From the IMG/VR virus record IMGVR_UViG_3300047471_000190: a stretch of 64,000 nucleotides of DNA; one strand, given 5' to 3'. This stretch comes from an uncultured virus (IMG/VR IMGVR_UViG_3300047471_000190). Lineage: Duplodnaviria > Heunggongvirae > Uroviricota > Caudoviricetes. Position numbers and translations under genes: made by a program. The notes beneath the pieces were generated by a model. That model had not been told where the DNA came from. It saw only the letters and a list, made by a program, of their open reading frames with translations, and ran no database searches. The number at the start of each line of letters is the position of its first letter. Position 1 is the stretch's first letter. Of the stretch, positions 24,396 through 53,433 are shown piece by piece.

Positions 24396-25484
24396 TCAGA
24401 TGCCGATCATGCTGGCGATGGCAAAAGGCTGTCGGATGACGGCGCCGAGCGTCCCGCCCACCATCTTCTGCTTGTAGCTCGACAGGTCGGGGATCAGCCG
24501 GCCAGCGCGCATTTTGACGTTGTATGCAACGAAGCCGGTTTTCTGGTTCCGAACATCGGTGCAGATCAGCTGCGCGAAGTTGCCACCGACAACGCCTTGC
24601 GGATTGCTGGCGGACTGGATGCCATACTGAACCGCGGAGACGATCTTCAGGTTCGGGAAGTTCTTCGACAGCAGATCCGACACATTGACGTCGAAGGAGT
24701 TGGTCGCGGTGATCGCGCCTTCCGAGATCGGCGACAACGCGAGAACGAAGTTCGACTTCACATTGATGTTGCCGCCGGCCTGCTGGATCAGTTGCAGGGC
24801 GAGCGATTGGATGTCGAGGAAAATCTCGTTCGGAGTTGCGGTGATGACGTTGTTCGTCACCCATTGGTTATTGCCATAGGCCTTCGGCGACGGCGTGATC
24901 GCGGCCGTCAGATTCGGATCATTCAGGAATCCGTAGTTCTGCAGGCCATTGATGCCGAAGAAGTAGCTCTGATTCTGGAACCGATTGATTGCCCAGGCCG
25001 CGGCCGCATTCAGTTCGTTCAGCCAGTTGATCTTCGCGAGACCGGCAACATCCAGTTCGCGATCGCCATACTGCAGGATCGTCTGAAAGAGGAACGGCTG
25101 GCGCGAGGGGAAGTTCGTGTTCGCGTTCACCGATCCGTTGTTGCTGTAGTCGCCATATGCCGACGTCTCGCCAGTGTGCTCGACGGTGGGGAACATGACG
25201 GAGTTCAGCGTCCAATCGCCCTTTTGCACCTCATCGAAAATCGATTTGGCTTCAAGCGGCGAGAACAGGATCTCGTACACTTGCGGATCGATCATGGTCG
25301 ACAGCCATACCGGAATGCCGCTGTTTTGCGTGGTCGTCAGCTGCGGCTGAGCGTCCATCGCCATGCCGATGTCGTCGGCCCAGCCGTCCGGCACATAATG
25401 GCGGACATCGGGGAAGACGGCGCCGAGTGCTTCGAACCGGCGTCGGTCACCCGCAAACTGTGTGCGTGCTTCGATCAAATTCAT
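24396..25484 (-). CDS. Major capsid protein (DUF2184-like, HK97 fold)
   Basis: AMDAQP..NSGIP, KGDW, YGDY, FFGI.GL.NYG.LNDPNL, GAVIRQPFAIASMIGI. Confidence 0.9.
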   Translation of the reverse strand: MNLIEARTQFAGDRRRFEALGAVFPDVRHYVPDGWADDIGMAMDAQPQLTTTQNSGIPVWLSTMIDPQVYEILFSPLEAKSIFDEVQKGDWTLNSVMFPTVEHTGETSAYGDYSNNGSVNANTNFPSRQPFLFQTILQYGDRELDVAGLAKINWLNELNAAAAWAINRFQNQSYFFGINGLQNYGFLNDPNLTAAITPSPKAYGNNQWVTNNVITATPNEIFLDIQSLALQLIQQAGGNINVKSNFVLALSPISEGAITATNSFDVNVSDLLSKNFPNLKIVSAVQYGIQSASNPQGVVGGNFAQLICTDVRNQKTGFVAYNVKMRAGRLIPDLSSYKQKMVGGTLGAVIRQPFAIASMIGI

Positions 25485-25507
25485 CTGGAGTGCCTTTCAT
25501 TGAAAAC

Positions 25508-25534
25508 AAAAAGGCGCTCCGGAGGAGACGCCTT
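25508..25534 (-). terminator. Putative terminator between decoration and capsid genes
   Basis: AAGGCGTCTCC/GGAGCGCCTT hairpin followed by T-tract. Confidence 0.5.
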
Positions 25535-25580
25535 GGGGTTGGGAGAACGAGCAGATTTTTTGGAGTGCGATGCCGGCGCG

Positions 25581-26564
25581 TTAGACGGTATCGGAGACCT
25601 TCACGAGTTCATTCGTTGCACCGGACGAGCGACAGATCCATTTGGTCTCGATCGAGGCTTGAGACGTGATGGCGGTCGACGAAACAACGGTGTTGTTGTC
25701 GACGACATAGGTGCCGGCAGCACCGGTGGTTCCGGTCAGCTGCTGATAGATCTTGGTACCGGTGACAACGCTCGAGCCGGAGATGGTTTGGCCCGCTCCC
25801 AAGCCAGCCACCACGGTGCCACCGATGGTGAGAACGCCATAGGTGCCAGACAGCGTGGTCGAGGCAACTGTCTGCCCGGGGATCGAGAGCGCATAGGTGC
25901 CCTTACCAGCAAGCGCACCGCCGCTTTCGCTCGAAGTCAGCTGCGAAACGATCTGAGTTCCGGTCGCGACACCGGTCCCGGAGAATGTCGCACCGCCATA
26001 AAGCGAACCGGCACCGACATTGGTCACCGTCAGCACGTTGTCGGCGATCGAGCCGGTGGCCGTGAAGGTGGCCGCGGCGATGGACGACGCCGAACCGGAT
26101 CCTCCTGGCGGAGTCGCGCCGGCCGCGGCGAAGTAAGCCGTGCCATCCGCGAAGTTCGCAAATGCCTTCATGCCGACTTGCGCCAGCGCCGCACCGGTGT
26201 TTTTGATCCACAGATCGACGCTGTTGAACAGTACCGCCTGCTGTCCCTTCAGTAGTACCATGCTTGAAGTCGCAAGGTACGCGGTGATGAGGCCGATCTG
26301 CTCACGGTGCACGAGGCCGGCGGGAAGGCCGGCGCCGAAGGTATTGACGATGGCCGGAGCATTGTCGCTGTCGATGCCGGCATAGCTCAGCCAGCCAAAA
26401 CGACCGACCACAATGCCGCTGACCAGCGCTCCATTGATAACACCGTTGCCGGAGACGAGCGCGCCTTCGCCGGCGAGTACGGTTGCGCGCGGATTGGCGG
26501 TAGCGAAATCGCCTTCGACCGCGGGGGCCTGGATAGTGTTAACCTGGTTGGGAAAGTCCGCCAT
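25581..26564 (-). CDS. Head decoration/cement protein with two inserted beta modules
   Basis: FPNQVN..QAPAVEGDFA..NP, GLVHREQ, ETKW; lies between protease and capsid. Confidence 0.8.
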   Translation of the reverse strand: MADFPNQVNTIQAPAVEGDFATANPRATVLAGEGALVSGNGVINGALVSGIVVGRFGWLSYAGIDSDNAPAIVNTFGAGLPAGLVHREQIGLITAYLATSSMVLLKGQQAVLFNSVDLWIKNTGAALAQVGMKAFANFADGTAYFAAAGATPPGGSGSASSIAAATFTATGSIADNVLTVTNVGAGSLYGGATFSGTGVATGTQIVSQLTSSESGGALAGKGTYALSIPGQTVASTTLSGTYGVLTIGGTVVAGLGAGQTISGSSVVTGTKIYQQLTGTTGAAGTYVVDNNTVVSSTAITSQASIETKWICRSSGATNELVKVSDTV

Positions 26565-26584
26565 TGAGATGGCTCCTTGTTTTC

Positions 26585-26622
26585 AAAAAGAGAGGGGAGG
26601 GGTTTTGGTTTGCCCCTCCCCC
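26585..26622 (-). terminator. Putative terminator after protease/scaffold gene
   Basis: GGGGAGGGG/CCCCTCCCC stem then CTCTTTT. Confidence 0.5.
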
Positions 26623-26654
26623 CGATCTGGGAGGAGGGCCGTTTCGGTTTTGCT

Positions 26655-28502
26655 TCAGCCCGCTTTGCGGACCTTGGCGGCGTTCGGGAAGCGGGAATTG
26701 AAGTCGCTGGTGCTAGCCGAGTCCTGCGCGATCGGATCACGTCGTGCAGCCCCAGGCACCGGGATGGCATCCCACAACGCCTGCAGGGCGTTCAGCTCCT
26801 TGATCTTGGAAACATCGCGATCCTGCATTTTGAACGCCTGACGATAAACGCCATCGGCGCTATCGAATGCCATATCGAGAACACCGACGATCGGCTGCAC
26901 ATGCGATCTCGCCGCCGCCACCGCGTTCATCTGCTTGATGGTGTCGGCTCGAGCGTTTTTGATTGCCTCGTCCATAGCACCCTTCGACACGAAGTCGGGC
27001 TTCTTGCCCTTTCCGTCGGGCCCGGCTTCGGGTTCGACGGTGTCCTTGTCCTTGGCACCGGCTGCAGCGGCCATCTTGGCAGCCTTTGCCTCGTCGGTTT
27101 CTTCTTCCTCGCCGCCGCCCTCGCCTGGCATGCCGGCGATCACGTCATCGGGTACACCCTTCGACTTCAGATACGCTTTGACGGCTTCCATGCCGCCGCC
27201 GGCGTCCATCGTGGTGTCTTCCTCGAGCCCATCGGAATCGGTGTCGAGTTCGCCATCCTCTACGGTCTTGTCGCCGTCGATCGACGCCATCAGTTTTTCG
27301 ACGCCTTCGATCACACCGACCAGGTCGCCGTCCTGCGCCAGCTTGATTTTTCCGAGTGACTTCTTCAGCGCGGCAACGAACGCCGGCACCGACGCCTTGA
27401 ATTTTCCCGGCTCGAACGTCGCCAGTGCGCCAGCAAGGTTCGGCATTGCCGTATCCATCGCCAGCTTCGGCTTCAGGAACGCAGTGAGCGCGCCATAGGC
27501 AACCGTCGCCTTCATGCTCTTGAGCTGCTTCTTCGACATCGTAAAAATCTCCTCTTGGGGTTGCAGTGCTTCGTCTAGGGCGACGTCCGATCCGGCGCGT
27601 CCCTTCTTCACCAGGCACACATGGTTTCCGACCATGTTGCGCATCACGCCGTCGTAGGGTTCGCCCTCGTAGGTGCCCGGCGTCATGTCTGCGTCGTAGC
27701 TATACGCGCTCGACAATTCTTTTTGCGATCCTGAATCGATGTGGTCGCGGCCTTGTCGATTCCAGATCGCGAGGCTGTTGTAGAGATACGGATGCTCATA
27801 TTCCGCTTCTGAGCCGACGGTGCCGACCGTGATATCGCCGTCGTGCTCGTCGGCGGAATGCGGTACGTGTCGATCAAGTAGCGGCAGATTGTGAAATGTC
27901 GCCGCTGCGTTCTTGATCTCGTCCGGATGGCGAAGCAGCCGATAGACCTTGCCGGGGTCGAGCCCGAGCTCGTTGCCCTTCGGAATCTCTCGACCGTAAT
28001 ACGGGTTGACGCCGGCCTTTGTGATCGGAGCGCGCTTGACGTGTAGCCGCTCGAAACCGTCGACCTGCTTGCCTTGCGTGTCCACCTCGCGATCGAACGC
28101 GAGCTGCACTGAGATGCCCGGCCTGGCCAGTTCAATGAACAAACCGTCGGGGGCCCGATCGAAAGCCAGATCCGGACCCAGCATGCCGGCGATATCGGCC
28201 GCCAGCACGGCGAACGCCTCGTCCATAGCGCCAAGCCTCGGCTTCATGGGCCAATTATTGGTGGGGGAAATACCCGAACCGCCGCAGCCAGCGCACCCAT
28301 GGCCTCCGCAGGCCGCGTGAACGCCGTCCTGAGCGATTGGGTTGGTCAGCAGGCAATCGCCGAGAAAGGCGCCTACCCAATCGGGAACCTCGTCAGCCGC
28401 GACAAATTCCTTGCCGACCGCCTGCGGCACCCCACCATAGCCGCCCTTTGTGTGTGCAGCAGCTTCCATCAGCCGCTTCTGAGCGGGCGAGACTGTCGGC
28501 AT
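26655..28502 (-). CDS. Prohead protease-scaffold (DUF2213-like)
   Basis: ITKAGVNPYYGREIP, LRHPDEI, KELSSAY.YD.D.TPG, NHV.LV..GRAG.DV; acidic scaffold C-terminus. Confidence 0.9.
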   Translation of the reverse strand: MPTVSPAQKRLMEAAAHTKGGYGGVPQAVGKEFVAADEVPDWVGAFLGDCLLTNPIAQDGVHAACGGHGCAGCGGSGISPTNNWPMKPRLGAMDEAFAVLAADIAGMLGPDLAFDRAPDGLFIELARPGISVQLAFDREVDTQGKQVDGFERLHVKRAPITKAGVNPYYGREIPKGNELGLDPGKVYRLLRHPDEIKNAAATFHNLPLLDRHVPHSADEHDGDITVGTVGSEAEYEHPYLYNSLAIWNRQGRDHIDSGSQKELSSAYSYDADMTPGTYEGEPYDGVMRNMVGNHVCLVKKGRAGSDVALDEALQPQEEIFTMSKKQLKSMKATVAYGALTAFLKPKLAMDTAMPNLAGALATFEPGKFKASVPAFVAALKKSLGKIKLAQDGDLVGVIEGVEKLMASIDGDKTVEDGELDTDSDGLEEDTTMDAGGGMEAVKAYLKSKGVPDDVIAGMPGEGGGEEEETDEAKAAKMAAAAGAKDKDTVEPEAGPDGKGKKPDFVSKGAMDEAIKNARADTIKQMNAVAAARSHVQPIVGVLDMAFDSADGVYRQAFKMQDRDVSKIKELNALQALWDAIPVPGAARRDPIAQDSASTSDFNSRFPNAAKVRKAG

Positions 28503-28745
28503 GGGGAGAACCTCGCAAGCATTCCGTTCAGTTTAACGGAAGCGTTAACGCGATAATTTGGCATCGGGCGGGTCGCGGCATGCCTTTCGGCTTTCGCGCA
28601 TCCCCGGTACGACCGGCCGCTTTCCGCTCGCCGCCCGATGATCTCGCCGAAGCGAGAATTGCTCGTCCTCGTCACGCGCTTATTGCAGGAAGCGACAACC
28701 GCGCCACCACAATCATCGTCTAGCCGGACGTCTCCGGCCGAGGAC

Positions 28746-29033
28746 TTATCTCTCCGGCGGAATGCGCCGTTGAACGATATAGGCTTTGCCGTCCGGCTGC
28801 TGCAGATCGCAGCGCTCTGCGTCTCTCATGTAGCCGCTGGTCTCGCAATCGTCATCCGACGAATAGACCCGTGGCGTATAGCCGGCCATGACCGTGCGCG
28901 GCAAAACGAAACGGCAAATGCCGTAAATCATGTTCTGCGGCCCCATGTCCATCTGCCGCTTGAAGAACTTGCAGGACCCGCACGTATCAGGCTCCGCGCT
29001 GGCGCCGACCGCCAAAATAATCTCGTTCGCCAT
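28746..29033 (-). CDS. Small Cys-rich (CxxC) protein
   Basis: TCGSCKFF...GICRF...CDL. Confidence 0.6.
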   Translation of the reverse strand: MANEIILAVGASAEPDTCGSCKFFKRQMDMGPQNMIYGICRFVLPRTVMAGYTPRVYSSDDDCETSGYMRDAERCDLQQPDGKAYIVQRRIPPER

Positions 29034-29038
29034 GACGT

Positions 29039-29224
29039 TTAGACGCTCATTGCCATGCCGGCGATCGCCAATGGAATGGCGCACACCAACCAAGCCATCT
29101 GCCCGGTGTCCCAAGCCTTGTAGACACCGAAGAACGCCGCGCCGATCACGACGATCACCGTTACCACAACAAACAATGCTGGGAAAAGAGGAAGGCCAAC
29201 CTTCTCGTCGCTGTCGTGGTGCAT
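29039..29224 (-). CDS. Small two-TM membrane protein
   Basis: GAGGT RBS; two hydrophobic helices. Confidence 0.6.
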   Translation of the reverse strand: MHHDSDEKVGLPLFPALFVVVTVIVVIGAAFFGVYKAWDTGQMAWLVCAIPLAIAGMAMSV

Positions 29225-29228
29225 GGCT

Positions 29229-29669
29229 CTACCTCGCAATGTCGATCTTGATGATGATGGCGACTTCTTGACGTCCCTGGCGCGCGGCGATTGCGCGCAT
29301 AGCCTTGTTGTTGACATGCGTCGCGGACTGAATCGACCGCACGTTCGGTAACTTTTCCCTGACATGCTTCAGCAGTTCGGCGAACATCGCGCTGTAGAGG
29401 CCGCGGCCACGAAATTCCGGCAGCACATAGGACTGATGAACCCAAATCCGCGCAGCATCGACGTTCCAAGTGATAACCCCAGCCGGCACCATGTCACGGC
29501 CGTTCCCGATATAGCCGATAAACGCTTGGAGGTTCGCACCCATATTAAGTTCGTGGTCGCTGAGCCCGTGCTCGACATTGTCGAGCCATCCACGCACCGC
29601 AAGTTCGGCCGCCGGGGTGCCGTTCAGGCCGTCAACCAACGTGCAACTGAATGATGCCTCCGAAGTCAT
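29229..29669 (-). CDS. GNAT family N-acetyltransferase
   Basis: YVLPEFRGRGLY acetyl-CoA motif A and N.AM...A..G motif B. Confidence 0.85.
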   Translation of the reverse strand: MTSEASFSCTLVDGLNGTPAAELAVRGWLDNVEHGLSDHELNMGANLQAFIGYIGNGRDMVPAGVITWNVDAARIWVHQSYVLPEFRGRGLYSAMFAELLKHVREKLPNVRSIQSATHVNNKAMRAIAARQGRQEVAIIIKIDIAR

Positions 29670-29956
29670 TCAAGACGCCCCTTGCCGATCGGCGACAGCA
29701 GAAAGCGCTCGAACTTCTGCTGCTTCGCCTTCTGCTTTTCAGTCCAAATAGTGGGGTATCGATCGGAGAACGTTGTAGCTCTCGGCGCCGGCAGCGGCAC
29801 TGGCTTATCGGCCGCGATCGCGCCCGTTATTCGCAACACCAGGACGATGATGCCGCCGATCACCAGCATGGGCGCGATCCGGCTCGAGGGCACAGGTATC
29901 AGCAAGATTCCGCCGACTACCAGCAGCATGAGCGCGAAGAAATAGGTCATGGGCAT
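29666..29956 (-). CDS. Two-TM membrane protein
   Basis: MPMTYFFALMLL start overlapping the upstream stop. Confidence 0.6.
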   Translation of the reverse strand: MPMTYFFALMLLVVGGILLIPVPSSRIAPMLVIGGIIVLVLRITGAIAADKPVPLPAPRATTFSDRYPTIWTEKQKAKQQKFERFLLSPIGKGRLE

Positions 29957-30267
29957 CAATCCTGGTTGCCGTGCGGCGGGAAGTTCGTCGGATGGTGCTG
30001 GCGGTGCCGAAGCGTGCCATCGCTTCGTAGATTGACCGCCTCGCCCGTCGTCCAATTCATGCAGTGAGTATGGCACGGATCATTCAGCGTGTTGGCGTGT
30101 GTGTGAGCACCATCAGTTATGCCGGTCGAATAGTGCGACGGCCGCGGGGTCGGATCGCTGACCGGCACCCATTTGATGTCGACAGATTTCGCCTCGACGA
30201 CTTTCGCAGCAGAGATAATAGCTGCGAATCCTGCGAAGACGGAAAACAAAGAACGGCGACATATCAT
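29956..30267 (-). CDS. Protein with twin-arginine-like leader and fibre-like HTH..DP.HTH motif
   Basis: MICRRSLFSVFAGFAAIISAAKVVEA; GAGG RBS. Confidence 0.55.
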   Translation of the reverse strand: MICRRSLFSVFAGFAAIISAAKVVEAKSVDIKWVPVSDPTPRPSHYSTGITDGAHTHANTLNDPCHTHCMNWTTGEAVNLRSDGTLRHRQHHPTNFPPHGNQD

Positions 30268-30300
30268 GATCGATTTTTCCTCAGCCACCTGCGCAGCACG

Positions 30301-30594
30301 TCAGCCCGGTCGGCGTAATGCCAAGTCCACCAAATACTGCCACCGGGTCATGCCGTCGCCATCCTCGGGGGAATAGATTTGACTGCTAAGCCATCGCTCC
30401 GCATCGCCATCGGCCTGCAGTTCGGGATCGAATGCCCTCGCCGAGTCCGCGCGTTTGGCATAGCTGCCGGTTTCCGTCTGGTGATGATCAGGCTTGAAGC
30501 GCGGTCCCCACACCAGCCAGAGAGCGCCCGCTGTTAGAACCGCCGCCAACGTGAGGCCAGCAAGCCACGGGTTTTCAAGGATGAAGGCGATCAC
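30301..30594 (-). CDS. Single-TM membrane protein
   Basis: AAAGGA RBS, GTG start, N-terminal hydrophobic helix. Confidence 0.55.
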   Translation of the reverse strand: MIAFILENPWLAGLTLAAVLTAGALWLVWGPRFKPDHHQTETGSYAKRADSARAFDPELQADGDAERWLSSQIYSPEDGDGMTRWQYLVDLALRRPG

Positions 30595-30605
30595 GGAAAT
30601 TCCTT

Positions 30606-30797
30606 TCACTCCCCGGGGTATAGTAGTTGCCAATGTACCCATTTGCCGTGACGCATCCGCATATAGAGCATGTGCGCGGTGCAGGCGATTGGATATCCAA
30701 TCATCCAGAGCGCGCCAATACCGATGAAGAACGCGACGGCAAATGGAAACCAATATGGAAATGTTAGGACAAGAAGCAGAAAGGCAATGAGAGTCAC
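30606..30797 (-). CDS. Small membrane protein
   Basis: Very hydrophobic 63 aa; overlapping start/stop. Confidence 0.55.
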   Translation of the reverse strand: MTLIAFLLLVLTFPYWFPFAVAFFIGIGALWMIGYPIACTAHMLYMRMRHGKWVHWQLLYPGE

Positions 30798-31027
30798 CGC
30801 GAAAGTCCCTCTGGCGTCCCATCATGTGGCCGCGCCCTGCCTCCACCGTAGGGCTGTGAATAGCCTTGAGGCGCTATCTTCGGCTTGTCGCGCGTCATGA
30901 CGGGCTGTGAAATTGTCGGACGTTCCGCGGTTCCGAATTGTGTTGGGCAATTGGCCCCTGAGCACCAGGAGGATTGCGCAGCGGCTGGACCAGCAAACAG
31001 CACTACGGCGAGCAGAAAATATTTCAT
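30794..31027 (-). CDS. Small secreted protein
   Basis: MKYFLLAVVLFAGPAAA|QS signal; ATGA-coupled to MuF. Confidence 0.6.
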   Translation of the reverse strand: MKYFLLAVVLFAGPAAAQSSWCSGANCPTQFGTAERPTISQPVMTRDKPKIAPQGYSQPYGGGRARPHDGTPEGLSR

Positions 31028-31851
31028 GAGAATCCCGCGATAACCGAGATCGAGACACACCGACAATTCGGCAGCTCTCCCGGGATAATCCACTTCTTGA
31101 CTTCGGGGTCATACCATCCCTTGGCGACGTCGTACAGCTTGCCGTTGTTCGCAACGTGCGTCGGCCGCGGATGCTTGCCGGCACCTGAGTGCCGCCATTT
31201 AGCTTTTTTGATACCGAGTTCGGTCTGCCGGGCTCGGTTCATGGCTCCGGTAGCGAGATTATTCTGAGAGCGCGCGATGAACGCCGCGCGCTTCTTCGTC
31301 GTGCCGTAGTTCTTTTCGAGGAATCGCGCCAGCGATCCCATATCCCGGCCGGTCTGAACGGAGCGCATCACCGCGCCTTCGACGTTCTTCAGGTACTGCT
31401 CAGGAATCGATTTGATGAGCGCGACGTTCGCGGCCCTGGTCGCATTGAAGACGTCGCGCATGCTGCGCGTCATTTTGAATTTTACGGAGAACCCGCCGTC
31501 ACGCAGGATCTTGCGCAGTGCCGCGTCGGTTCGCGCGCCGACGGCGCCGGTGAAGTAATCAGCCAGTTCCCACGCTGCATTGTCGAAGTTCTTCAGCCAT
31601 CGCTTCGACAGCGCGCGGATGGTGCGGACCAAATCGTTCGCTGGCAGAACGTCGTCCATCGCGAGCAGCGGCGCATTGTTCTTGTAGCGCTTCAGCACCC
31701 AATACTGAACGGAGCGGTCCATCTCCTCGATCAGTCGCTCGAGCTTCACGCGATAGGCAGCCTGCAGGCCTGCGTTTGGGTGCAGCGGCCGGAGGATGAT
31801 CTCCTTGCCGCGCGCCGGCTTAACTTCGGTAGCGCGAAAGGTGCCGTGCAT
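31024..31851 (-). CDS. Head morphogenesis protein (MuF/SPP1 gp7 family), short form
   Basis: NV.LIKSIP, RAAFIARSQ, WRHS..G..PRPTH, PGELPNCRC. Confidence 0.9.
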   Translation of the reverse strand: MHGTFRATEVKPARGKEIILRPLHPNAGLQAAYRVKLERLIEEMDRSVQYWVLKRYKNNAPLLAMDDVLPANDLVRTIRALSKRWLKNFDNAAWELADYFTGAVGARTDAALRKILRDGGFSVKFKMTRSMRDVFNATRAANVALIKSIPEQYLKNVEGAVMRSVQTGRDMGSLARFLEKNYGTTKKRAAFIARSQNNLATGAMNRARQTELGIKKAKWRHSGAGKHPRPTHVANNGKLYDVAKGWYDPEVKKWIIPGELPNCRCVSISVIAGFS

Positions 31852-31895
31852 CTTTGCTCGTCTCCGCAGTCAACCTCTCGCAGAGATTATGCAGA

Positions 31896-32048
31896 TCATC
31901 CCATGCTGGCCTGCAGTATTTCGAGCCCTTCTGAACTGTCGCGCAGCACAAAGTGTTCGCCTGTCGATATCCAGCGGCGGCCGAACACCTTGCCGCGCGG
32001 ATATGCTGGATATGGTTCGTCCGGTAGTGCCATCCGCCGTTCAGACAT
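31896..32048 (-). CDS. Small hypothetical protein
   Basis: Hand-translated MSERRMALPDEPY...QASMG* with AAGGAG RBS; below the ORF-track cut-off. Confidence 0.4.
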   Translation of the reverse strand: MSERRMALPDEPYPAYPRGKVFGRRWISTGEHFVLRDSSEGLEILQASMG

Positions 32049-32059
32049 TTGTCTCTCCT

Positions 32060-32266
32060 TCATGGGTTGATTCCGAGATACGTCAGCATTTCCGTTCGCG
32101 TTCGCTGCGCGGTCAGGAATCCCTTGCGGATAACCTCTCGCGTGCCGGCGACGTCGTCGCGCTCCGTATGCTTGAAGGCGGCGACAAAGGTCTCCCGCAT
32201 TTGGTTTTGAAAGGCCTGGTCGATCGCTTCGGTAGCGAGAGCAGTTACCGATTTTACATCAGGCAT
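32060..32266 (-). CDS. Hypothetical protein
   Basis: In-operon ORF overlapping the upstream stop. Confidence 0.55.
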   Translation of the reverse strand: MPDVKSVTALATEAIDQAFQNQMRETFVAAFKHTERDDVAGTREVIRKGFLTAQRTRTEMLTYLGINP

Positions 32267-32612
32267 CTTTGCCGCTCTGAAACGATTTGTCCGACGTATC
32301 GACGGAACCCTCCCCCAACGCTGGTGTTCCTTCGACTTGGTTCTTCAAGTCATCTGCAAACTTTTTGTTTGCAGCTGCAATCTCAGCCAATTCCTCAGCT
32401 GTGCGGGTATTCGGTAGCCCTGCAGCTTCGGATACGCGCCGCATTGCGGCAATGCCTTCTTCGATTCGATCCTGAATCCGGTGATGATCGTTTACGACCT
32501 GACGCGCCGACTCCTTCACTTGTAGACGACGATGGTTCAAATCATCCGCGTCGTTGTCGAGGCCCTTCAGGTCAGCTTCGACATCCTCCGCAAGCTGGAC
32601 AAACTTTCGCAT
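32259..32612 (-). CDS. Hypothetical coiled-coil protein
   Basis: AAGGA RBS before MRKFVQLAED; alternative start at 32702. Confidence 0.55.
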   Translation of the reverse strand: MRKFVQLAEDVEADLKGLDNDADDLNHRRLQVKESARQVVNDHHRIQDRIEEGIAAMRRVSEAAGLPNTRTAEELAEIAAANKKFADDLKNQVEGTPALGEGSVDTSDKSFQSGKDA

Positions 32613-32622
32613 GATTCGGTCC

Positions 32623-32850
32623 TTACGTTTCTCGCGATTGATGGTGCGCGACAGGTGCAGATCGAGCAGCTGCGTCAGCAGCAATACGTGATCTGGCTTC
32701 ATGGATTGTGATGCCGTAGTAGCGGGCGAGCTTTACCTCGCCGCGATGCTTCTCGCGCCAAATATCGTTCACGGCATTTTGCCGCTCGAGCGACCCGGGA
32801 TGGCGAACCACCCGGGGCACGAGAACTCGCTTTCGAGATCGTGTCATCAA
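32623..32850 (-). CDS. Small basic hypothetical protein
   Basis: Overlaps the upstream stop and fits operon packing. Confidence 0.45.
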   Translation of the reverse strand: MMTRSRKRVLVPRVVRHPGSLERQNAVNDIWREKHRGEVKLARYYGITIHEARSRIAADAAARSAPVAHHQSRET

Positions 32851-33047
32851 TCCTCGTCCTGGTCTTCCTCTGTCCCGCGCTCACGCTGCACCGGCCGGCC
32901 GAGTTCGTCAACGATTTCCGGTTCGAACGGTGGGTCGCCTTCCTTGACCTGGTTCAGCTTGCCGCCGAGCATGCCGGGCGGATGATCCTCCAGCGTAGAC
33001 TGCACCTGGTCAACGGTCTTCTTCGGGTCTTTTGCCATCGGGATCAA
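32847..33047 (-). CDS. Small acidic protein directly downstream of the portal-ART fusion
   Basis: Overlaps or abuts the portal stop; acidic C-terminus. Confidence 0.55.
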   Translation of the reverse strand: MIPMAKDPKKTVDQVQSTLEDHPPGMLGGKLNQVKEGDPPFEPEIVDELGRPVQRERGTEEDQDED

Positions 33048-36000
33048 ACTTCCTGCAGAACAATGTTGGTGCCTTGGCGTGACAAAACCTTGAATCGCGA
33101 GCCGGATTTGAACAGAACCTCGGCCTCGCTAGGATGCGAGGACAGCTTCTGAATGTCCTTGCCGTTCTTGCCGTGGATCGTGAAATTGTGGCTGCCTGAC
33201 CATGTGCCCTGAGTTTTGCTGGTGCTCATGAAGCCGCGCTCCTCGATGACATAACCCGGCTCGTAAAGCGCGACCTGGTCAGGAGTCAGCGACGCCTTTC
33301 GGTAAGTGGTGCCATTGTGCGATGGCAGCTTGTCGAGACCAGCGTTCAGCGACTGCCGGAATTTGTCCTGCGCTTCGGTCATCTTGCCTGCACGCAGCTG
33401 ACTGTTGACCTGGCTGTAGTGCGAGCCGCTGTAGGCAATGATCGGAATCGCATCTGCCGGCGACATATATTTCGAGAGACCTGCAGCTTTGACTTTATTG
33501 GCCGCCGCCGCCGCATACGATGCTCCGGCATCCTTGCCGCCGAACAGCGCCTCGGCCGCTTCGTAATGTAGTTTCAACGTCGGGTCAGCGGCGAACTGCT
33601 CCTCCAGCTCGGCCTTTTGCTTGGCTACCTTTTCGGCAATTTTCTTTTTGGCCTCGTCGAGCGCTTTCTTTTCGGACGCAGCCTTCTCGGCTTTCGATTG
33701 CGCTTCGTACTCGGCCGTCAACTTCGGAAGCACCGCCTGCAGATCCTTGTAGTCTTGGACCTTCTGGTTCAGCTGCTCCGGCGTAAGATTGTCCTTGCCG
33801 GCGTACTTGTCGTTGAAGTCCTTGATGACCAGCACGCCCGCCGGCGCCGTGGTGTTGATCGGCAGCGTCGTCGACTTCACGGCTTTTTTCAGCTCGGCTT
33901 CGGTGGCCTTCGGCGCCGTCTTTGCTTGATAGGCATCGAACACACCGGGCACGATCTTTTCGATCGCAGCCTTGCCAGCCGGCGTGGCATTGCTCGAAAA
34001 CGTCTTTGCCCATTCCGGATTGAACTTGAATAGCCCGGCGATCGCGTGAACGTCCTTGGTTTGTGCGGCCTCGGCAACGGCGCCGAGAAATTGCGAGTAA
34101 TCGGCCGGCGGCGACCCAGCTGCCGGGCCTGCGGGAATGTCTGCAGCCTTCGGCGGCTTCACCTGTCCCGCCGACGAGCCTGGCATCGTCTCCGGCGTGG
34201 TGCTGCCCTTCTTCACCTGAGCCTTGGCCTTGTCCTGCTCTTTCGCCGCGGTCTTCTCCGCATCGGTCAGCGGCGTTCCGAAATACTTGCCGTCTTTTTT
34301 CTCCAGCTTCATGCCGAGCGACTTCGCCTGTGCCGGCATCGAGACTGACGGCCAACCCATGGTCTGCATCAACTCTTTCGGCGTGGTGCCGTTAGTCAGT
34401 AGATGCGCGATATGCTCCTTCTTCGACTTGAAGGCGCTCGCGACAGCGGCGCTCTTGCCGTCCTCTTTGGCGCCCGTCGAACCGCCGCCGCCAGTCGAGG
34501 AGAATTTGCCGTCCTTGTCGCGCTTGTGCTTGGATTCCTCGAAACTCTGCTCGTCCATCGCAAAGCAATCGTCGGCGATCTCGATCACGTCACCGTCGAA
34601 GTCGATATCGTCCTCGTCGTCTTCCTCATCGCCGTCGGCATCGAGCGCCGCGGTCATCATCGCCTCGTCCGGATCCTCGTCCTGCGCAATGCCGAACTTC
34701 TGCGCCATGTTCTTTTTGCGCGCGATTAGCCGATCGGCGAGCGCCTGGTCGTCACCGACGGTGCTGCGGATATCGGCATCGGAGATCGACGTCACGCGCT
34801 CGATCGAGGATTTGATCTCGTCGTCGGTCATCTTGCCGAACAGTCCCGCGGCGTCAGGGTTCATGTTCTTGTCGCGCAACGTGTCGAGTTCAGTCACTTG
34901 GTCGCCGAACGCCTTGCCCTTTTCGCCGCCCTGCGCGCGGTAGCGCAAGCTGCCGCCGACGTCGAGCGTGGTAGGCTTGCCGCCCATGATGCCCTGGTTA
35001 TCGCCGCCGAGCCCGGCCGCATCCCAATTCGACAACCATGCGTGCACGGCGAAGTCAGCAGCCGCGGCCTTCTTTTCCGCCGGCGTGAACTTCGCGATGT
35101 TGTTCTTGTCTAGATCCTGCCACGCGGTCACGACGTGATTGGGCCCGGCCTCGCGATAATCCAACGTGTTGACGCCGGCGAGCTGGTAGAGCTTGGCCGC
35201 AGTCTTCTCGTTCGTGACGTGCGCCTGGCTTGCCGGCTTCTTGACGTAGAACTTGCCGCCGGCGTCGTCCGTGTAGACGCCGCCTTCATTGCTGCCGAGT
35301 TTGCCGCCCTGCTTCTTCAGCGACGAGACGTTGAGAGGCGCCGATGAGTTCGGCTGCGCCAATGGTGCGGTCATAGTCTTTTTGCCAGCCGTTGATGACT
35401 TCGGGCTCGTACCACCGCCCCCCGACCCAAATTTGCCGTCGTCCGCCCGCGGGTGCTCGTCTTCGTTCCATTCGTCACTTGCTCCATCGAAAGCTTTGTC
35501 GGCCGGCCCCTTGCCGCCTCCGCCGCCTGGACTACGGCTGCCGCCGTTTCCGCCGTCGCCGCCTTCATCGTCGCCGCCCATGCCGGGCTGCTGCTCCGGC
35601 ACGTCCTCCGGATTGATATCCGAATAGCGGGACTCAGGCTGCGCGGCCACCGCCTTGCGCACTTCGCCCGGGTCGAGCACGCCGCTATCGATGCGAATCT
35701 GGTCGGTCTCGGCCTCGATCTTCTGAATCTCGGCCTGCTCCTTTTCGGTCATAGACCAAAGCGGCTCGAACTCGAATGTTATCTCCTCGTCGATTTCGCC
35801 CCACAGGTGCAGCATGATGAAGTGGATCACGGCCTGGAGCTGGTCGCGGAAAAAGGATTCCTGGTATGCGTGGATCCAGTCGTAGAACGCCCTGATCTCG
35901 CCTTCGCTCGAGGCGTTCAGCCCGGTCGGCGTAATGCCAAGCAAGATGATCAGCGGAATGCCGCTGACTGACGACATCTGCTCCTGGCTTTGGGCCTGGA

Positions 36001-37351
36001 GCGCGTCGAGAGTTCCGAGCGGCGTCGAGACGTTGAAGAACTCCTCGGTATCCTTGTCGAGCGCAAAAGCACCGGCGTTCGATCGCATGACGTTGAACAG
36101 TTCGATGCGCTTCAGCGCTTCGACGCCGCCGTCCTGCAGCGTGCCCTGCATGTTCGTATAAACGCCGCTGACAGAGAACGACTCGATCAGATCGGCCACC
36201 GCCTGCCTGGTGCGCAGCCAGTTGTCGACGTAGGGCTTCGCCATCTGCGACATCGACAGTCCGCCGAACGCATAGGCGGGCTTGAGGATGTCGGGGACTT
36301 CGCGGCCGACAAAGCACATGAGCCGCGATCGGTGTATCTCGATGCCGTTCGCATACCAGCGATCGGGATTGTAGAAGCCCTCCTTGAGCGGGTTGGCGGC
36401 CTCATAGGTTGCGGGATAGCACCACATCGGCTCAACAGTGCGGAAGGCTTTGATACAGCCCTTGCGTATCTTGCCGCGGCTCGTGGCGTTCGATCCATTG
36501 CCTATCGACGTCTTCAGTTCTTCGCGCGCCTCCGGCTTGTCGATATCGACAAGGTGGAAACCTTTCTTGATGCGAACATCGCAGAACAGGTGATAGCGGC
36601 CAAACCAGCCATCGCCCTCGGCGATATTGTAGAACGCATCCTTGATCTTGAAGCCACGCATCGCGTCTTCAAGCTCTTTGATCCGTTTTGCCTTCTTGGC
36701 GCTTTCGACCTTTGCAACGGAATCGCGCACGCGGTCACGATCGGACTGCGCCTTCTCAGCAGCTGTCGCGGCCGCAACTTCCGGCCCCTCTCCAGCGTCC
36801 TCCTCTGGATCATCAAGCGGGTCCGAACCAACCTGCTCCTGGTCGAGCTGCGCCGCCGGCTCGCCTGTCTCCGCGCTGGTCTTGCTGACGACGTGCAGCT
36901 TGATCCATTTGCGGGTCATCTCGGTCGCAATGCGTTCCGAGATCCGGCGATACTCTGGCCGCTGTGTCAATTGCGCCAGATACGCGTAGCCGAGAAAACC
37001 AATGCCCTCCTCGAACAGCTGCCCGTCGGCGCCGCCCCATTGCATCAGCCCAGAAAATGCGGTGGCGCCCAAAGCCTCGTCAAGCGCCATCGGCTTGACG
37101 TCCGGTGGCAGCACGCTCGGCGGTGGCACGTAAGGCTGAAATGGATTGCCATTCTCGATCGTGCGCGGTGTCTTGCGGTTGAGCCGGTGGCTCATTCCGC
37201 GCGCGTGCAGCAATACATCGTCCTTGATCTTCAGCGGCTTCTTTTCCGCTGCCGTGAGAGCTTTCGCTGCAGGCTTGGCGACAGCAGCCGCCTTTGCTGC
37301 GCGCCGTGCAGCCACGCGATTGAAGCCCACTGGCAGCTTGGTAACGCTCAT
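33044..37351 (-). CDS. Portal protein (DUF1073-like) fused to kinase-like, wHTH-like and ADP-ribosyltransferase domains
   Basis: Portal motifs (GFLGYAYLAQLTQRPEYR, LKPAYAFGGLS, LLGITPTGLNASSEGEIR, FEPLW); kinase YVK/NE/NWD..DN/LDVG; ART YR/STS/ExE. Confidence 0.9.
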   Translation of the reverse strand: MSVTKLPVGFNRVAARRAAKAAAVAKPAAKALTAAEKKPLKIKDDVLLHARGMSHRLNRKTPRTIENGNPFQPYVPPPSVLPPDVKPMALDEALGATAFSGLMQWGGADGQLFEEGIGFLGYAYLAQLTQRPEYRRISERIATEMTRKWIKLHVVSKTSAETGEPAAQLDQEQVGSDPLDDPEEDAGEGPEVAAATAAEKAQSDRDRVRDSVAKVESAKKAKRIKELEDAMRGFKIKDAFYNIAEGDGWFGRYHLFCDVRIKKGFHLVDIDKPEAREELKTSIGNGSNATSRGKIRKGCIKAFRTVEPMWCYPATYEAANPLKEGFYNPDRWYANGIEIHRSRLMCFVGREVPDILKPAYAFGGLSMSQMAKPYVDNWLRTRQAVADLIESFSVSGVYTNMQGTLQDGGVEALKRIELFNVMRSNAGAFALDKDTEEFFNVSTPLGTLDALQAQSQEQMSSVSGIPLIILLGITPTGLNASSEGEIRAFYDWIHAYQESFFRDQLQAVIHFIMLHLWGEIDEEITFEFEPLWSMTEKEQAEIQKIEAETDQIRIDSGVLDPGEVRKAVAAQPESRYSDINPEDVPEQQPGMGGDDEGGDGGNGGSRSPGGGGGKGPADKAFDGASDEWNEDEHPRADDGKFGSGGGGTSPKSSTAGKKTMTAPLAQPNSSAPLNVSSLKKQGGKLGSNEGGVYTDDAGGKFYVKKPASQAHVTNEKTAAKLYQLAGVNTLDYREAGPNHVVTAWQDLDKNNIAKFTPAEKKAAAADFAVHAWLSNWDAAGLGGDNQGIMGGKPTTLDVGGSLRYRAQGGEKGKAFGDQVTELDTLRDKNMNPDAAGLFGKMTDDEIKSSIERVTSISDADIRSTVGDDQALADRLIARKKNMAQKFGIAQDEDPDEAMMTAALDADGDEEDDEDDIDFDGDVIEIADDCFAMDEQSFEESKHKRDKDGKFSSTGGGGSTGAKEDGKSAAVASAFKSKKEHIAHLLTNGTTPKELMQTMGWPSVSMPAQAKSLGMKLEKKDGKYFGTPLTDAEKTAAKEQDKAKAQVKKGSTTPETMPGSSAGQVKPPKAADIPAGPAAGSPPADYSQFLGAVAEAAQTKDVHAIAGLFKFNPEWAKTFSSNATPAGKAAIEKIVPGVFDAYQAKTAPKATEAELKKAVKSTTLPINTTAPAGVLVIKDFNDKYAGKDNLTPEQLNQKVQDYKDLQAVLPKLTAEYEAQSKAEKAASEKKALDEAKKKIAEKVAKQKAELEEQFAADPTLKLHYEAAEALFGGKDAGASYAAAAANKVKAAGLSKYMSPADAIPIIAYSGSHYSQVNSQLRAGKMTEAQDKFRQSLNAGLDKLPSHNGTTYRKASLTPDQVALYEPGYVIEERGFMSTSKTQGTWSGSHNFTIHGKNGKDIQKLSSHPSEAEVLFKSGSRFKVLSRQGTNIVLQEV

Positions 37352-39021
37352 CGACGTTGCCTACGCTTCATCGAAGCGGCCGCGGCGAGAAGACCGTCTG
37401 TAATTTTCATCGGCTTCCTCTCAACGCGCGCGAACAACATCATGATGGCGTCAGCAAGGTTCGGCGACTTCACGCCGTCGGGCTGCTTGTTGATCAGCAT
37501 CTTGCCGATCGTGCTTTGCCCATAGGTCGGCTGCGTCAGCTCGCCGATCAGCTTCGTGAAGTACGGCATGTTCGACGGGATGCAGATGATCTCGTCGTGG
37601 CTGCAGGGTTTGTTCTCTTTGACCAACCGATAGGTGTTGCGGAAGCGCGTCCGCAAATTCCACCATCCCTGTGCCTTGGCGTTCTGGTAGTAGTCCTTGT
37701 TCTTGCGGCCCTTGACGTCTTCGCCTTCAGGATCGAACGGCGACGCCGAACCGCGGAACGCAACGACATCGAGCTGCTGCAGCTTCTCCCGCTCGCGAGC
37801 CTCGTTCAGAATTCGGGCGTCGCCGCGGGCGCCGGCGCCAACCCCATCACCGTCGTACTTGAACCGCAGCACGCCGTTCTTGTCGGACATCGCAAATGCT
37901 TGCGCGACGCTATCGAAGATATCGCCATCAGCTGCACCGGACCATTCGCGCAAATCAGTCAGCAATACACCGTGCGCGGCAACGAAGGCGTTCAGATCCT
38001 TTCCTTGGTCGGCGATGTCGAGAGCACCATGCCGATCGCCGCTCGGTATCAAACCGATCTTATCGTGTGCGTCGACCGCCGCCATCACCCATGCATGCGG
38101 AATGACGACGCCCGTAACCGACGCATCGTAATTGATGTCGATCTCTTGCGCGATCACGACGGGGTCGTCGATGTCCTCGCACTGCTTCTGATACCAAGCC
38201 TCGTCTTTGCGCGGATCATCACGCCAATGCAGCGTGAACGCTTCGACCTTGCCGCTGTGTCGGCGTACCGAAAACGAATTGCCGCGGCCCTTCGGTGTCG
38301 AGATGTCCTGCCGACAATTGGTGGTTTGCGACAGCGCAAAGTCGACTGACTTCGGATTGACGAGATGCGAACTCTCGTCGACGAAATAGATTCCCTTTCG
38401 ATCGCCGCGGCCGATGTTGTCGCCGCTTTGTCCCGTCATGGTCGAGCCATTCGGAAACAGAATCCGCATGTGCGGCGCGTGGCGATTGATATCCCAGCCG
38501 CCTTTGAACTCCCGCGGCAGCTCCTGCATGAAGATGCGGGCTTTCCAGAACAGCGACTTCGGCTCGCCTAGCTTGTCGACGTAGTCCTCCGTCACTGACC
38601 CGTAGCCGATGTTCATGCCAGTGTGGAACAGGCACAACGTGCAGCCCAGCGCCACCTCGAGCCACGACAGCCCACCATCTCGCGACTTGTCGGTCACACC
38701 TGGTCGGCGCTCTTTCCATTTGCGTACGACGAACTTCAGCCAGTCGATCTGCTTCTCGAACATGACGAACGGCATCATCGGATCGGCGCCGATCTCAACG
38801 CGCCGCGGGTCGACCGTCACTCCCCAATCGCTGATGAAGTCCCAAGGGTTTTCTTTGTAGTGTTCGCGCAGGCCGGCGAGGAACGCCTCGCGTTCCCGCT
38901 TCGGCATCGAGCGGATCGATGTGAGCCGGTCGGCGCGCTGCTGCCAGATGGCGGCGTAGCCTGGCTCTGGGTTCTTCCAATCGAACGCCTGGATCTTGCG
39001 AGCGGCCGGACCTTTAGCCAC
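37348..39021 (-). CDS. terL: Terminase large subunit
   Basis: KSRDGGLSW Walker A, YFVDES Walker B, ISTP.G, nuclease LDIAD.G.D and SPNLADA. Confidence 0.95.
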   Translation of the reverse strand: MAKGPAARKIQAFDWKNPEPGYAAIWQQRADRLTSIRSMPKREREAFLAGLREHYKENPWDFISDWGVTVDPRRVEIGADPMMPFVMFEKQIDWLKFVVRKWKERRPGVTDKSRDGGLSWLEVALGCTLCLFHTGMNIGYGSVTEDYVDKLGEPKSLFWKARIFMQELPREFKGGWDINRHAPHMRILFPNGSTMTGQSGDNIGRGDRKGIYFVDESSHLVNPKSVDFALSQTTNCRQDISTPKGRGNSFSVRRHSGKVEAFTLHWRDDPRKDEAWYQKQCEDIDDPVVIAQEIDINYDASVTGVVIPHAWVMAAVDAHDKIGLIPSGDRHGALDIADQGKDLNAFVAAHGVLLTDLREWSGAADGDIFDSVAQAFAMSDKNGVLRFKYDGDGVGAGARGDARILNEAREREKLQQLDVVAFRGSASPFDPEGEDVKGRKNKDYYQNAKAQGWWNLRTRFRNTYRLVKENKPCSHDEIICIPSNMPYFTKLIGELTQPTYGQSTIGKMLINKQPDGVKSPNLADAIMMLFARVERKPMKITDGLLAAAASMKRRQRR

Positions 39022-39532
39022 CTGCAGCCTTCTTCTTCGCTACCGGCTTGCCTGAGATCAGCTGCGCCGCCGGCGAGATATCGATCACGTCCGAATCGCG
39101 CAACAGTCGATATGCCTCCTGCGGCGTCAAGCGGTTTGCTGCCGCATAGTCGCCCTGACTGCCGGCGAGGTTGTCGCCGATCGGCATCTCGGGCAGCTGG
39201 ATGGTCGCCTTGAACTTCGGCGATTGGAACGGCGCCAGCACGGCCGCGAAGTCTCCCGCCAGCTTGGCATACTCGACAAACTTCACCTCGTTCGGCTGTT
39301 GCCCGTTCATAGGCACAACGCCGTGCGGAAGCGGCTGGTGCTGCGCCGCCATTCCGAGGAACGTATGCATGAGGTCGTCGAGCACCTCACGGGCGAGCTT
39401 CCTGCCGGGCTTGCCGCGCTGTTCCTGCGCAATGCGCTGCGCGATCAGCGCGCGCTCGACGCTCGCCTTGTTCGGCGTTCCCTTCTGCCGGCCACCCTGG
39501 CGGACACCCTTCGGAGAACCCTTTCCCGCCAT
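39014..39532 (-). CDS. terS: Terminase small subunit
   Basis: GGRQKGTPNK, APFQSPK; overlaps the terL start. Confidence 0.8.
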   Translation of the reverse strand: MAGKGSPKGVRQGGRQKGTPNKASVERALIAQRIAQEQRGKPGRKLAREVLDDLMHTFLGMAAQHQPLPHGVVPMNGQQPNEVKFVEYAKLAGDFAAVLAPFQSPKFKATIQLPEMPIGDNLAGSQGDYAAANRLTPQEAYRLLRDSDVIDISPAAQLISGKPVAKKKAAGG

Positions 39533-53181: not shown

Positions 53182-53433
53182 ATGCCTGTTTTCCAAAATG
53201 GTGCCAAGACGACAACCGTCATCACTATCGTTGAACGTCACGAGCTGGAGTTCGACGGTCTCCAGATCAAGCGACTTTTACTCGCTGCCGGCTTCGTCGT
53301 TCCGGAAAAATGCGATCTGAGAATCTACATCGCTATCCCAGGCGGCGGCGACTGGTCGAACACCGATATCGAGATTAGCAATGAGCATCCGCTCTGCGTC
53401 GAGTGGACAACTACTGTCGAGCGCAAATCATGA
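53182..53433 (+). CDS. Hypothetical protein
   Basis: GGAGG RBS; VPGGGDWSN-like motif; coupled to the next gene. Confidence 0.65.
   Translation: MPVFQNGAKTTTVITIVERHELEFDGLQIKRLLLAAGFVVPEKCDLRIYIAIPGGGDWSNTDIEISNEHPLCVEWTTTVERKS

Follow-up and report, generated by a model that had tools for sequence, protein, structure and literature searches.

The window analysed here is the whole 64,000-nucleotide stretch of an uncultured phage of the Caudoviricetes (IMG/VR record IMGVR_UViG_3300047471_000190), and its positions 24396-39532 carry, on the minus strand, the head module of a contractile-tailed phage. The head genes follow each other as a possible small terminase, the large terminase, the portal, the MuF protein, a GNAT acetyltransferase, a DUF2213 protein, an XM1-gp53-like decoration protein and the major capsid protein; the rest of the window contains tail sheath, baseplate, tape-measure-like, primase/helicase and methyltransferase genes. 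The portal is a polyvalent protein, in which a head-anchoring domain and two effector domains, one kinase-like and the other an ADP-ribosyltransferase (ART), are carried by one polypeptide. A short signature of Ala, any residue and Asp (A-x-D) recurs in the head proteins, and very probably marks the cut sites of the head protease. A sequence-only reading of the window had proposed that the DUF2213 protein cuts after A-[M/L/F/Q]-D (A[MLFQ]D hereafter) and thereby frees the kinase-like and ART cassettes of the portal as separate proteins inside the head. The features under discussion are collected in Table 1.

Table 1. Features of the head module in the window (aa, amino acids; nt, nucleotide positions of the window; E, expectation value; an arrow marks a predicted cut)
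Feature	Position	Strand	Remarks
Portal-cargo polyprotein gene, 1435 aa	33044..37351	minus	Phage_portal_3 E=1.6e-68, residues 123-552; ADPrib_exo_Tox E=5.9e-10, residues 1288-1424
Portal N-terminal site M-A-L-D↓E-A, residues 89-91	37079..37087	minus	before the portal core
Portal core, residues 123-552	35696..36985	minus	PF06381 match
Junction 1 sites K-A-F-D (620-622) and G-A-S-D (624-626)	35474..35494	minus	AFD at 35486-35494
Cargo-leader module 1, residues 627-647	35411..35473	minus	EWNEDEHPRADDGKFGSGGGG
Protein-kinase-like cargo domain, residues ~670-889	34685..35344	minus	
Post-kinase sites I-A-Q-D (889-891) and A-A-L-D (902-904)	34640..34687	minus	acidic spacer; IAQD site at 34679-34687
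Junction 2 site F-A-M-D↓E, residues 931-933	34553..34561	minus	
Cargo-leader module 2, residues 934-957	34481..34552	minus	EQSFEESKHKRDKDGKFSSTGGGG
Last cassette	33047..34480	minus	small domain ~960-1050, helical region, ADP-ribosyltransferase ~1232-1435
MuF head protein	31024..31851	minus	PF04233 E=1.3e-13; L-A-M-D↓D at residues 64-66 (nt 31654-31662)
DUF2213 protease-scaffold, 615 aa	26655..28502	minus	protease domain ~142-320, nt 27543-28079
Scaffold conserved sites 135, 348, 389	28092-28100, 27453-27461, 27330-27338	minus	
Scaffold conserved sites 509, 545, 592	26970-26978, 26862-26870, 26721-26729	minus	
Protease-scaffold extra sites 57, 92, 113		minus	lineage-specific N-terminal extension
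Decoration/minor capsid protein	25581..26564	minus	PF23982 E=8.3e-13
Major capsid protein	24396..25484	minus	phrog_264 E=2.4e-65; G-M-A-M-D↓A-Q-P at residues 42-44 (nt 25353-25361)

Fold and conserved sites of the DUF2213 protein

The DUF2213 protein matches PF09979 with 146.8 bits (cut-off 22; E=8e-43) and phrog_2229, annotated as 'head maturation protease', with E=5.5e-105. An AlphaFold model built on 73 sequences has a mean predicted local distance difference test score (pLDDT) of 77.6, which exceeds 90 in the catalytic domain. Residues 142-305 of this model superpose on T4 gp21 (5jbl_B) with Z 11.2 and a root-mean-square deviation of 2.9 Å over 131 aligned residues, and about 30 herpesvirus protease entries match the model at Z 5.5-8.5; in Foldseek with the whole 615-residue model, gp21 and the herpesvirus proteases are at the top of the list with E about 1e-3. 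The DUF2213 domain as modelled has the fold of T4 gp21 and herpesvirus assemblin. His212, Ser264 and His294 are invariant in the 73 sequences and are the putative catalytic residues.

The same 73 protease-scaffold sequences, which are 35-42% identical, show A-x-D at six scaffold sites (135, 348, 389, 509, 545 and 592) in 65-70 members each, with a hydrophobic residue ahead of the Ala and mostly Ala, Ser or Arg behind the Asp. Residues 1-134 of the window protein (28100-28502) constitute a lineage-specific N-terminal extension, in which a peptide resembling phrog_16759 (residues 1-41) is separated from a Cys/Gly-rich stretch, HAACGGHGCAGCGGSG, by AQD, AMD and two AFD. Many relatives have 150-740 extra residues at this end, and many protease-scaffolds have cargo there; in L006, one of the relatives, a Nudix-box-like stretch occupies the same position and is followed by LAQD, LASD, LAFD and LAFD. 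A protease gene identical to that of the window is present on another viral-contig record (L004).

The family includes proteins known under another name. Pa193 gp24, a 'putative scaffolding protein', is a homologue of the DUF2213 protease-scaffold (for the PB1, Pa193 and E217 homologues, see L001 13132-14568), and the word 'protease' occurs 0 times in the structure papers on E217 (PMC10329688) and Pa193. Residues 286-326 of Pa193 gp24 are described as remaining bound beneath the pentons, and the matching stretch of the PB1 protein falls between A-x-D sites 212 and 356. Retention of this stretch fits with fragmentation of the scaffold at these sites, and is no proof of it. No account of the specificity of DUF2213 proteins was found in the parts of the literature on DUF2213 and PB1-like capsid maturation that were covered; the proteome of PB1-like phages (Ceyssens et al., Environ Microbiol 2009) may bear on the point.

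Distribution of the A-x-D signature in head proteins

The position of the cut can be read from the major capsid protein. In an alignment of the window capsid with the best 120 of 1281 matches (52-98% identical), the tripeptide at residues 42-44 is AMD in 98 of the 121 homologues, ALD in 8, GMD in 5, AFD in 4, AQD in 3, and AYD, MMD and a gap in 1 each, so that A-x-D is found in 114 and Asp in 120. All of the 53 capsids from related loci have A-x-D at this site, and AMD is retained even in the capsid of PB1, which is 26% identical to that of the window. The PB1-like phages (KPP12, E217, Pa193 and PB1) have homologues of the portal, MuF, DUF2213, decoration and capsid proteins of the window. For the major structural protein of KPP12, the N-terminus obtained by Edman degradation is SNFTAPVTT... 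(PMC3474789, Fig. 1 legend), and this sequence comes straight after ...GSAMD in the capsid proteins of PB1 and Pa193. Therefore, the PB1-like capsid is cut after the Asp of A-M-D. GMAMD-AQP of the window aligns with this cut site, and the mature capsid protein of the window is predicted to begin at Ala45. In E217, the first 65 residues of the capsid protein are without density (PMC10329688) and the deposited chain begins at residue 66. No PDB match was obtained with the capsid profile for the XM1 capsid, in which the N-terminal 30 residues are missing, and it was not alignable.

The portal and MuF have similarly placed sites. At residues 89-91 of the portal, Ala is found in 120 and Asp in 120 of 121 portals, with Met (96), Leu (11) or Gln (8) in the middle and Met, Leu, Ile or Val at P4 in 120; PB1 retains this site as VAMDSA, and the E217 portal is modelled from residue 97 on only. 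In MuF, 52 of 55 relatives have A-x-D at residues 64-66 (AQD in 26 and AMD in 9), and 52 have Met, Leu, Ile or Val at P4. The MuF protein itself consists of 275 amino acids, and its MuF domain extends to residue 267 with no C-terminal toxin domain behind it. The decoration protein of the window contains zero A-x-D.

All the A[MLFQ]D motifs listed in the sequence-only reading, in the capsid, MuF, protease-scaffold and portal (ALD, AFD, AQD and AMD), are present where it had placed them; its 'about ten' for the protease-scaffold is exactly 10, and the portal has four more, at residues 430, 902, 1230 and 1327. Among 53 analyst-chosen open reading frames (ORFs) of at least 100 amino acids in the window, with the expectation taken from composition and 2000 shuffles, these 10 compare with 1.2 expected, a count reached in 0 of the 2000 shuffles, and the 8 of the portal compare with 2.16 expected (p=0.002). 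The five head proteins together have 20 motifs in 3014 amino acids, versus 12 in 13601 amino acids of the 48 other ORFs. The middle-residue set M/L/F/Q had been picked post hoc, and the generic A-x-D is enriched weakly in the window protease (14 versus 7.4 expected; rank 9 among 400 gapped pairs). The window statistic thus hinges on the choice of the middle residues, and independent families were used instead; by themselves the window counts are suggestive and not conclusive. Of the 18 matches in the protease and portal, four look like chance, namely protease 308 (A-x-D in 2 of 73 aligned sequences) and portal 430, 1230 and 1327 (absent from two close relatives, L006 and L007), and two more, protease 57 and 92, belong to the lineage-specific N-terminal extension.

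The independent family consisted of the query and 150 cluster representatives of the protease-scaffold, which were the best 150 of 6860 matches at E<=1e-3. In an unbiased test of 4491 tripeptides over these 151 members, AMD ranked 2nd (329 versus 32.6 expected), AQD 6th (234 versus 27.2) and AFD 15th (177 versus 26.8), and the remaining top tripeptides came from the catalytic domain, as single-copy motifs. In total, 902 A[MLFQ]D compared with 172.7 expected, and 141 of the 151 members had 4 or more. A second set was formed from 84 related viral-contig loci, of which 65 were left after removal of near-identical proteases, with the window excluded; ORFs were counted if they had at least 100 residues and lay on the same strand as the protease, so that some of the 'other' ORFs may not be genes. 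In these 65 loci, A[MLFQ]D was observed 387 times in the protease-scaffold (70.9 expected; ratio 5.5), 73 times in the capsid (18.6; 3.9), 62 times in MuF (17.6; 3.5) and 94 times in the portal (48.2; 1.95), versus 5 times in the large terminase (8.7 expected) and 167 times in 684 other ORFs (174.4; 0.96). In the decoration protein, the motif is depleted, with 3 observed versus 10.9 expected in 58 relatives (ratio 0.28); the motif looks avoided there, as if this head protein must remain intact, and the KPP12 homologue is described as retaining its initiator Met (PMC3474789). The comparison of head with non-head proteins that the sequence-only reading had proposed is thus clearly positive, and because the family and the loci are independent data, the post hoc choice of middle residues is no longer an objection. 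Its assignment of A-x-D cleavage to the DUF2213 protease is strongly supported by the gp21/assemblin fold, the near-invariant capsid AMD and the Edman start of KPP12. The restriction to Met, Leu, Phe or Gln in the middle holds at the capsid site and the portal N-terminus, but a much broader choice is seen at the scaffold sites and cargo junctions. As amended from these alignments, the code would comprise a hydrophobic residue at P4, Ala at P3 and Asp at P1 as the determinants of the cut.

Portal-borne cassettes and their leader module

The portal matches PF06381 (Phage_portal_3, formerly DUF1073) with 231.5 bits over profile positions 2-357 of 357. Past the crown, its chain continues with a Gly-rich linker, KAFD-GASD, the first leader module, a folded domain, IAQD and AALD in an acidic spacer, FAMD, the second leader module, a small domain, a helical region and the ART. 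The domain at residues ~670-889 has pLDDT above 90 in the AlphaFold model. In Foldseek, it is most similar to the kinase CtkA of Helicobacter pylori (E=3e-5, prob 1.0); RIO, JAK and other kinases come next, with 76 kinase-type matches at E<=1e-3 in all, and matches in the structure atlas point to PI3/PI4-kinase, HipA and actin-fragmin kinase. K704, E715, D777, N785 and D797 are invariant in 39 sequences of this domain. No Pfam kinase family matches the segment; the kinase-like fold that had been proposed for this cassette is confirmed by CtkA and by the invariant K704, D777, N785 and D797. The ART is found by PF03496 with 39.2 bits (cut-off 23.4) and, when the segment alone is searched, by PF01129 with 24.2 bits (cut-off 22.3); its translation shows YRK, STS and SEAEV, of which YRK, STS and EAE are read here as putative R-S-E catalytic motifs. 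Residues ~960-1050, which had earlier been labelled 'wHTH', gave no Pfam hit at E<=5 and no structure-atlas hit.

Among the relatives, 623 portals of 789-2512 amino acids have ART, NUDIX, Hint and other cargo. The kinase-like domain is present in 102 and the ART in 111 of 120 portal relatives, and the kinase location varies among portals (633-853, 910-1130 or 952-1168). Two further portals may be mentioned here: in that of L008/L009 (857 amino acids), a P-loop stretch, GPPAAGKST, lies behind the same junction, and in Orisa03 (L002 portal, 703 amino acids) the short domain behind the junction looks like an ART, with YRG...STS...E-x-E-like motifs. In the PB1 portal, the C-terminal extension is shorter and of another kind, with a degenerate junction only, GAGDPVPAAPRG, and residues 529-765 at the C-terminus of the E217 portal are invisible in the structure.

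Each cargo cassette is headed by a leader module with the consensus [FW]xExxH[PK]RxxxG[KQ]F, followed by a Gly/Ser-rich stretch (GSGGG), for which the name HPR module is used. In the query and the 120 listed of 623 portals, the pattern H[PK]R-x(2-5)-G-x-[FW] was found in 186 instances in 111 of the 121 portal-cargo proteins. A-x-D lies within 20 residues upstream of the module in 154 of the 186, where the background density predicts 13%, and in 140 of these 154 junctions the spacing from Asp to His is 7-9 residues. Alignment counts had also been made for junction 1 (1/39), AQD 889 (4/39) and ALD 902 (10/39), and were dropped as gap-dominated; as the linkers are misaligned, the alignment-free spacing test was used instead. 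At the second junction, the site at 931-933 has A-x-D in 30 of 39 aligned sequences and reads FAFDE in both L006 and L007, the close relatives with the kinase cassette. The other cargo carrier follows the same logic: N-terminal cargo of protease-scaffolds contains the module in 15 instances in 14 of the 151, mostly preceded by x-D.

The individual sites of the window portal can be judged against this background. AFD 620-622, which had been taken as the site of the first junction, is indeed present there, but by spacing the canonical site is ASD 624-626; the Asp of ASD is 7 residues ahead of His633, which is the modal spacing in relatives, and that of AFD is 11 ahead. L006 has GFD..GASDEW at this junction, and both sites may be used. 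AQD 889, noted earlier as lying right behind the kinase, is the counterpart of the A-x-D found at the junction directly behind the kinase in relatives, as in RFGLAQDE..FEEGKHPR. It is retained in one of the two close relatives, and ALD 902-904 (AALD/AAMD) in both. In L007, an extra inserted domain is bracketed by AALDA and MALDA/FAFDE. In the model, the junction sites have pLDDT from below 50 to about 70, and those of junctions 1 and 2 have pLDDT below 50, versus more than 90 in the kinase domain. At later junctions, P4 is hydrophobic in 36 of 57.

The leader module is apparently undescribed, and it matches no Pfam family at E<=5. The 39-residue junction module, used as a tblastn query on 50,697 phage records, gave no match at E<=1; as this query is short and of low complexity, the result is uninformative. 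By a word-based search with a 41-residue module query, which gave 28 candidates and 9 matches, the module was found outside the family in five small stand-alone proteins and two PF04860-type portal-ART proteins (P0395-P0401); it also occurs in a nuclease-toxin-type protein. A-x-D is absent ahead of the module in all 7 of the stand-alone and portal-ART proteins, which fits with A-x-D being a family-specific protease site and not a part of the module. One protein, P0374, begins with MPGEFKEGDHPR, exactly at the point where a cut would leave the cargo. These comparisons suggest that the leader would be a general cargo tag, to which A-x-D may have been added specifically in phages with a DUF2213 protease.

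Among the neighbouring genes, small ones lie between MuF and the protease (28746-30846), which include the GNAT acetyltransferase (29229-29669) and ORFs of 122, 136 and 181 amino acids; the last of these has two A[MLFQ]D (p=0.03), and these genes may encode further head-packaged proteins. Outside the head module, three separate DNA-methyltransferase-like genes (42677-43954, 46345-47184 and 53403-54752), of which one carries a fused ParB-like nuclease domain, suggest heavy investment against restriction.

Cargo release, its alternatives and its meaning

In the proposed mechanism, the DUF2213 protein would be a prohead serine protease fused to its own scaffold, which cuts after Asp in [L/I/M/V/F]-A-x-D↓[A/S/E/D]. 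Judging from conservation, it would take about 91 residues off the N-terminus of the portal, cut MuF after residue 66, fragment the scaffold at the six fixed sites and detach small passenger peptides from the N-terminus of the protease. In the portal, the C-terminal extension of 800 residues would be cut after D622/D626, D891/D904 and D933 in disordered linkers, to yield inside the head a ~265-residue kinase-like protein, a ~500-residue ART protein and a portal core of ~530 residues. The cargo would enter the prohead as a fusion to the portal (12 copies) or the protease-scaffold, and cleavage would let it exit with the DNA. Every freed cargo would start with the leader, a separate cargo tag that may serve docking, retention or ejection. 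That the portal cassettes are freed by the protease, within one proteolytic grammar of the head module, is regarded as probable though well short of certain. Release of the kinase-like and ART cassettes appears well motivated: the cassettes have been shuffled among relatives, yet the arrangement of A-x-D and module is retained at their boundaries, and the linkers are of low model confidence, both of which favour release.

Several observations weigh against this mechanism. The Edman result was obtained on a relative, whose capsid and that of the window share only 26% identity, and the authors are silent on processing, as 'cleav' occurs 0 times in PMC3474789. The model is of high confidence around scaffold sites 348, 389 and 545 (pLDDT 92-96), so that not all sites are in disordered linkers. 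The generic A-x-D is not enriched in the window portal (14 versus 13.0 expected), 32 of the 186 modules are without an upstream A-x-D, and the out-of-family comparison comprises 7 proteins only. At first junctions, P4 is hydrophobic in only 44 of 92 and Gly in 35, unlike the validated capsid site, and the middle residue at junctions is broad (F, T, Q, G, S, E, A, M, H and L). This looseness at P2 and P4 is the main cause for caution, because some of the junction A-x-D could then belong to the leader and not be a substrate.

The last point leads to an alternative that is rather unlikely but deserves weight, in which A-x-D is a cut site in the capsid, the scaffold, the portal N-terminus and MuF, and the junction A-x-D is part of the HPR module, so that the cargo stays unreleased and twelve tethered copies act inside the head or are pulled out with the DNA. 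The broad P2 and the Gly at P4 would be explained in this way, and so would the fixed spacing of 7-9 residues to His, as expected of one structural unit. The module region is also of raised model confidence (blocks about 76-79), and residues 529-765 of the E217 portal may be present though invisible. However, the module occurs without A-x-D in the 7 proteins outside the DUF2213/PF06381 family, P0374 starts at the module, the hydrophobic P4 typical of true sites is seen in 36 of the 57 later junctions, and spacers and an inserted domain are flanked by additional A-x-D sites that have no module. Host targets, moreover, would be out of reach for a tethered kinase or ART. It is improbable that the cassettes are released by some other activity, either by autoproteolysis through the His of the module or by a host protease after injection. 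Embedded peptidases and post-injection processing are proposed for polyvalent proteins in the parts of PMC5512222 covered by term searches, and the invariant His and Arg of the module adjoin the putative scissile region; against this, the portal extension showed no peptidase domain, the junction Ala and Asp are in the same register as the validated A-x-D of capsid and scaffold, and the out-of-family modules lack the Asp. Finally, A-x-D could be a binding or structural motif, for example for docking of scaffold to capsid, with its enrichment in head proteins reflecting assembly contacts. The location of scaffold sites 348, 389 and 545 at helix ends of high model confidence, and the scaffold fragment that stays in the Pa193 capsid, would agree with such a role, but the KPP12 protein starts exactly after AMD, the E217 capsid has density from residue 66, and A-x-D is present in unrelated folds and disordered linkers, so that this explanation is given hardly any credence.

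Cleavage of head proteins by a prohead protease at short motifs is itself an already known principle of T4 and phiKZ. T4 gp21 recognizes an L/I-x-E motif and processes Alt and internal proteins, and the protease of phiKZ-like phages (gp175) recognizes S/A/G-x-E and extensively cuts many head and inner-body proteins. The window phage resembles T4 in having the same protease fold (Z 11.2) and a short motif with acidic P1 in the capsid, the scaffold and the packaged cargo. Both also have an ADP-ribosyltransferase as head cargo, which in T4 is trimmed by the head protease and for which trimming is proposed here. Unlike T4, it has Asp at P1, Ala at P3 and a protease fused to its scaffold, and its cargo is translated as part of the portal or protease-scaffold, with polyprotein-like release proposed, instead of being directed by an N-terminal capsid-targeting peptide. 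With phiKZ gp175 it shares a small P3, any P2 and an acidic P1, but differs in the DUF2213 sequence family, Asp instead of Glu and portal-tethered cargo.

Arrays of effectors (ART, kinase, Nudix and nuclease) fused to portal or MuF, and presumed to be co-delivered with DNA, have been described (Iyer et al., 2017, PMC5512222; Jamet et al., 2017, PMC5576092). In term searches, the matched portions of these two papers, where embedded peptidases are proposed or release is left open, contained neither a prohead-protease motif nor an 'HPR' module. Unlike in MuF polymorphic toxins, MuF of the window is without a toxin and the effectors are on the portal. What is new here is a P1-Asp site for a large and unrecognised prohead-protease family, together with a proposed polyprotein-like release logic for portal-tethered cargo. 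A more speculative extension, held only tentatively, is that there are two separable codes, a family-specific scissor site with hydrophobic residue, Ala, any residue and Asp, and a family-independent leader acting as an exit signal for the tail channel. If this is true, the portal and the protease-scaffold would serve as polyprotein carriers, from which any cassette placed between two sites is freed after being packaged in fixed copy number, and the leader would serve generally as an injection tag for proteins that phages deliver, and could be transplanted.

As the 6860 relatives among cluster representatives indicate, DUF2213 head modules are very common, and the family includes PB1-like Pseudomonas phages of therapy cocktails. 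With a defined cut site, the mature products of capsid, portal, MuF and scaffold become predictable from sequence, and unassigned density and retained scaffold fragments are easier to interpret. From hundreds of portal-cargo and protease-cargo fusions, the separate enzymes that would be injected (kinase-like, ART, Nudix and nuclease) could be listed. The route by which effectors fused to portal and MuF leave the particle becomes testable, and the leader module is a candidate packaging or ejection signal.

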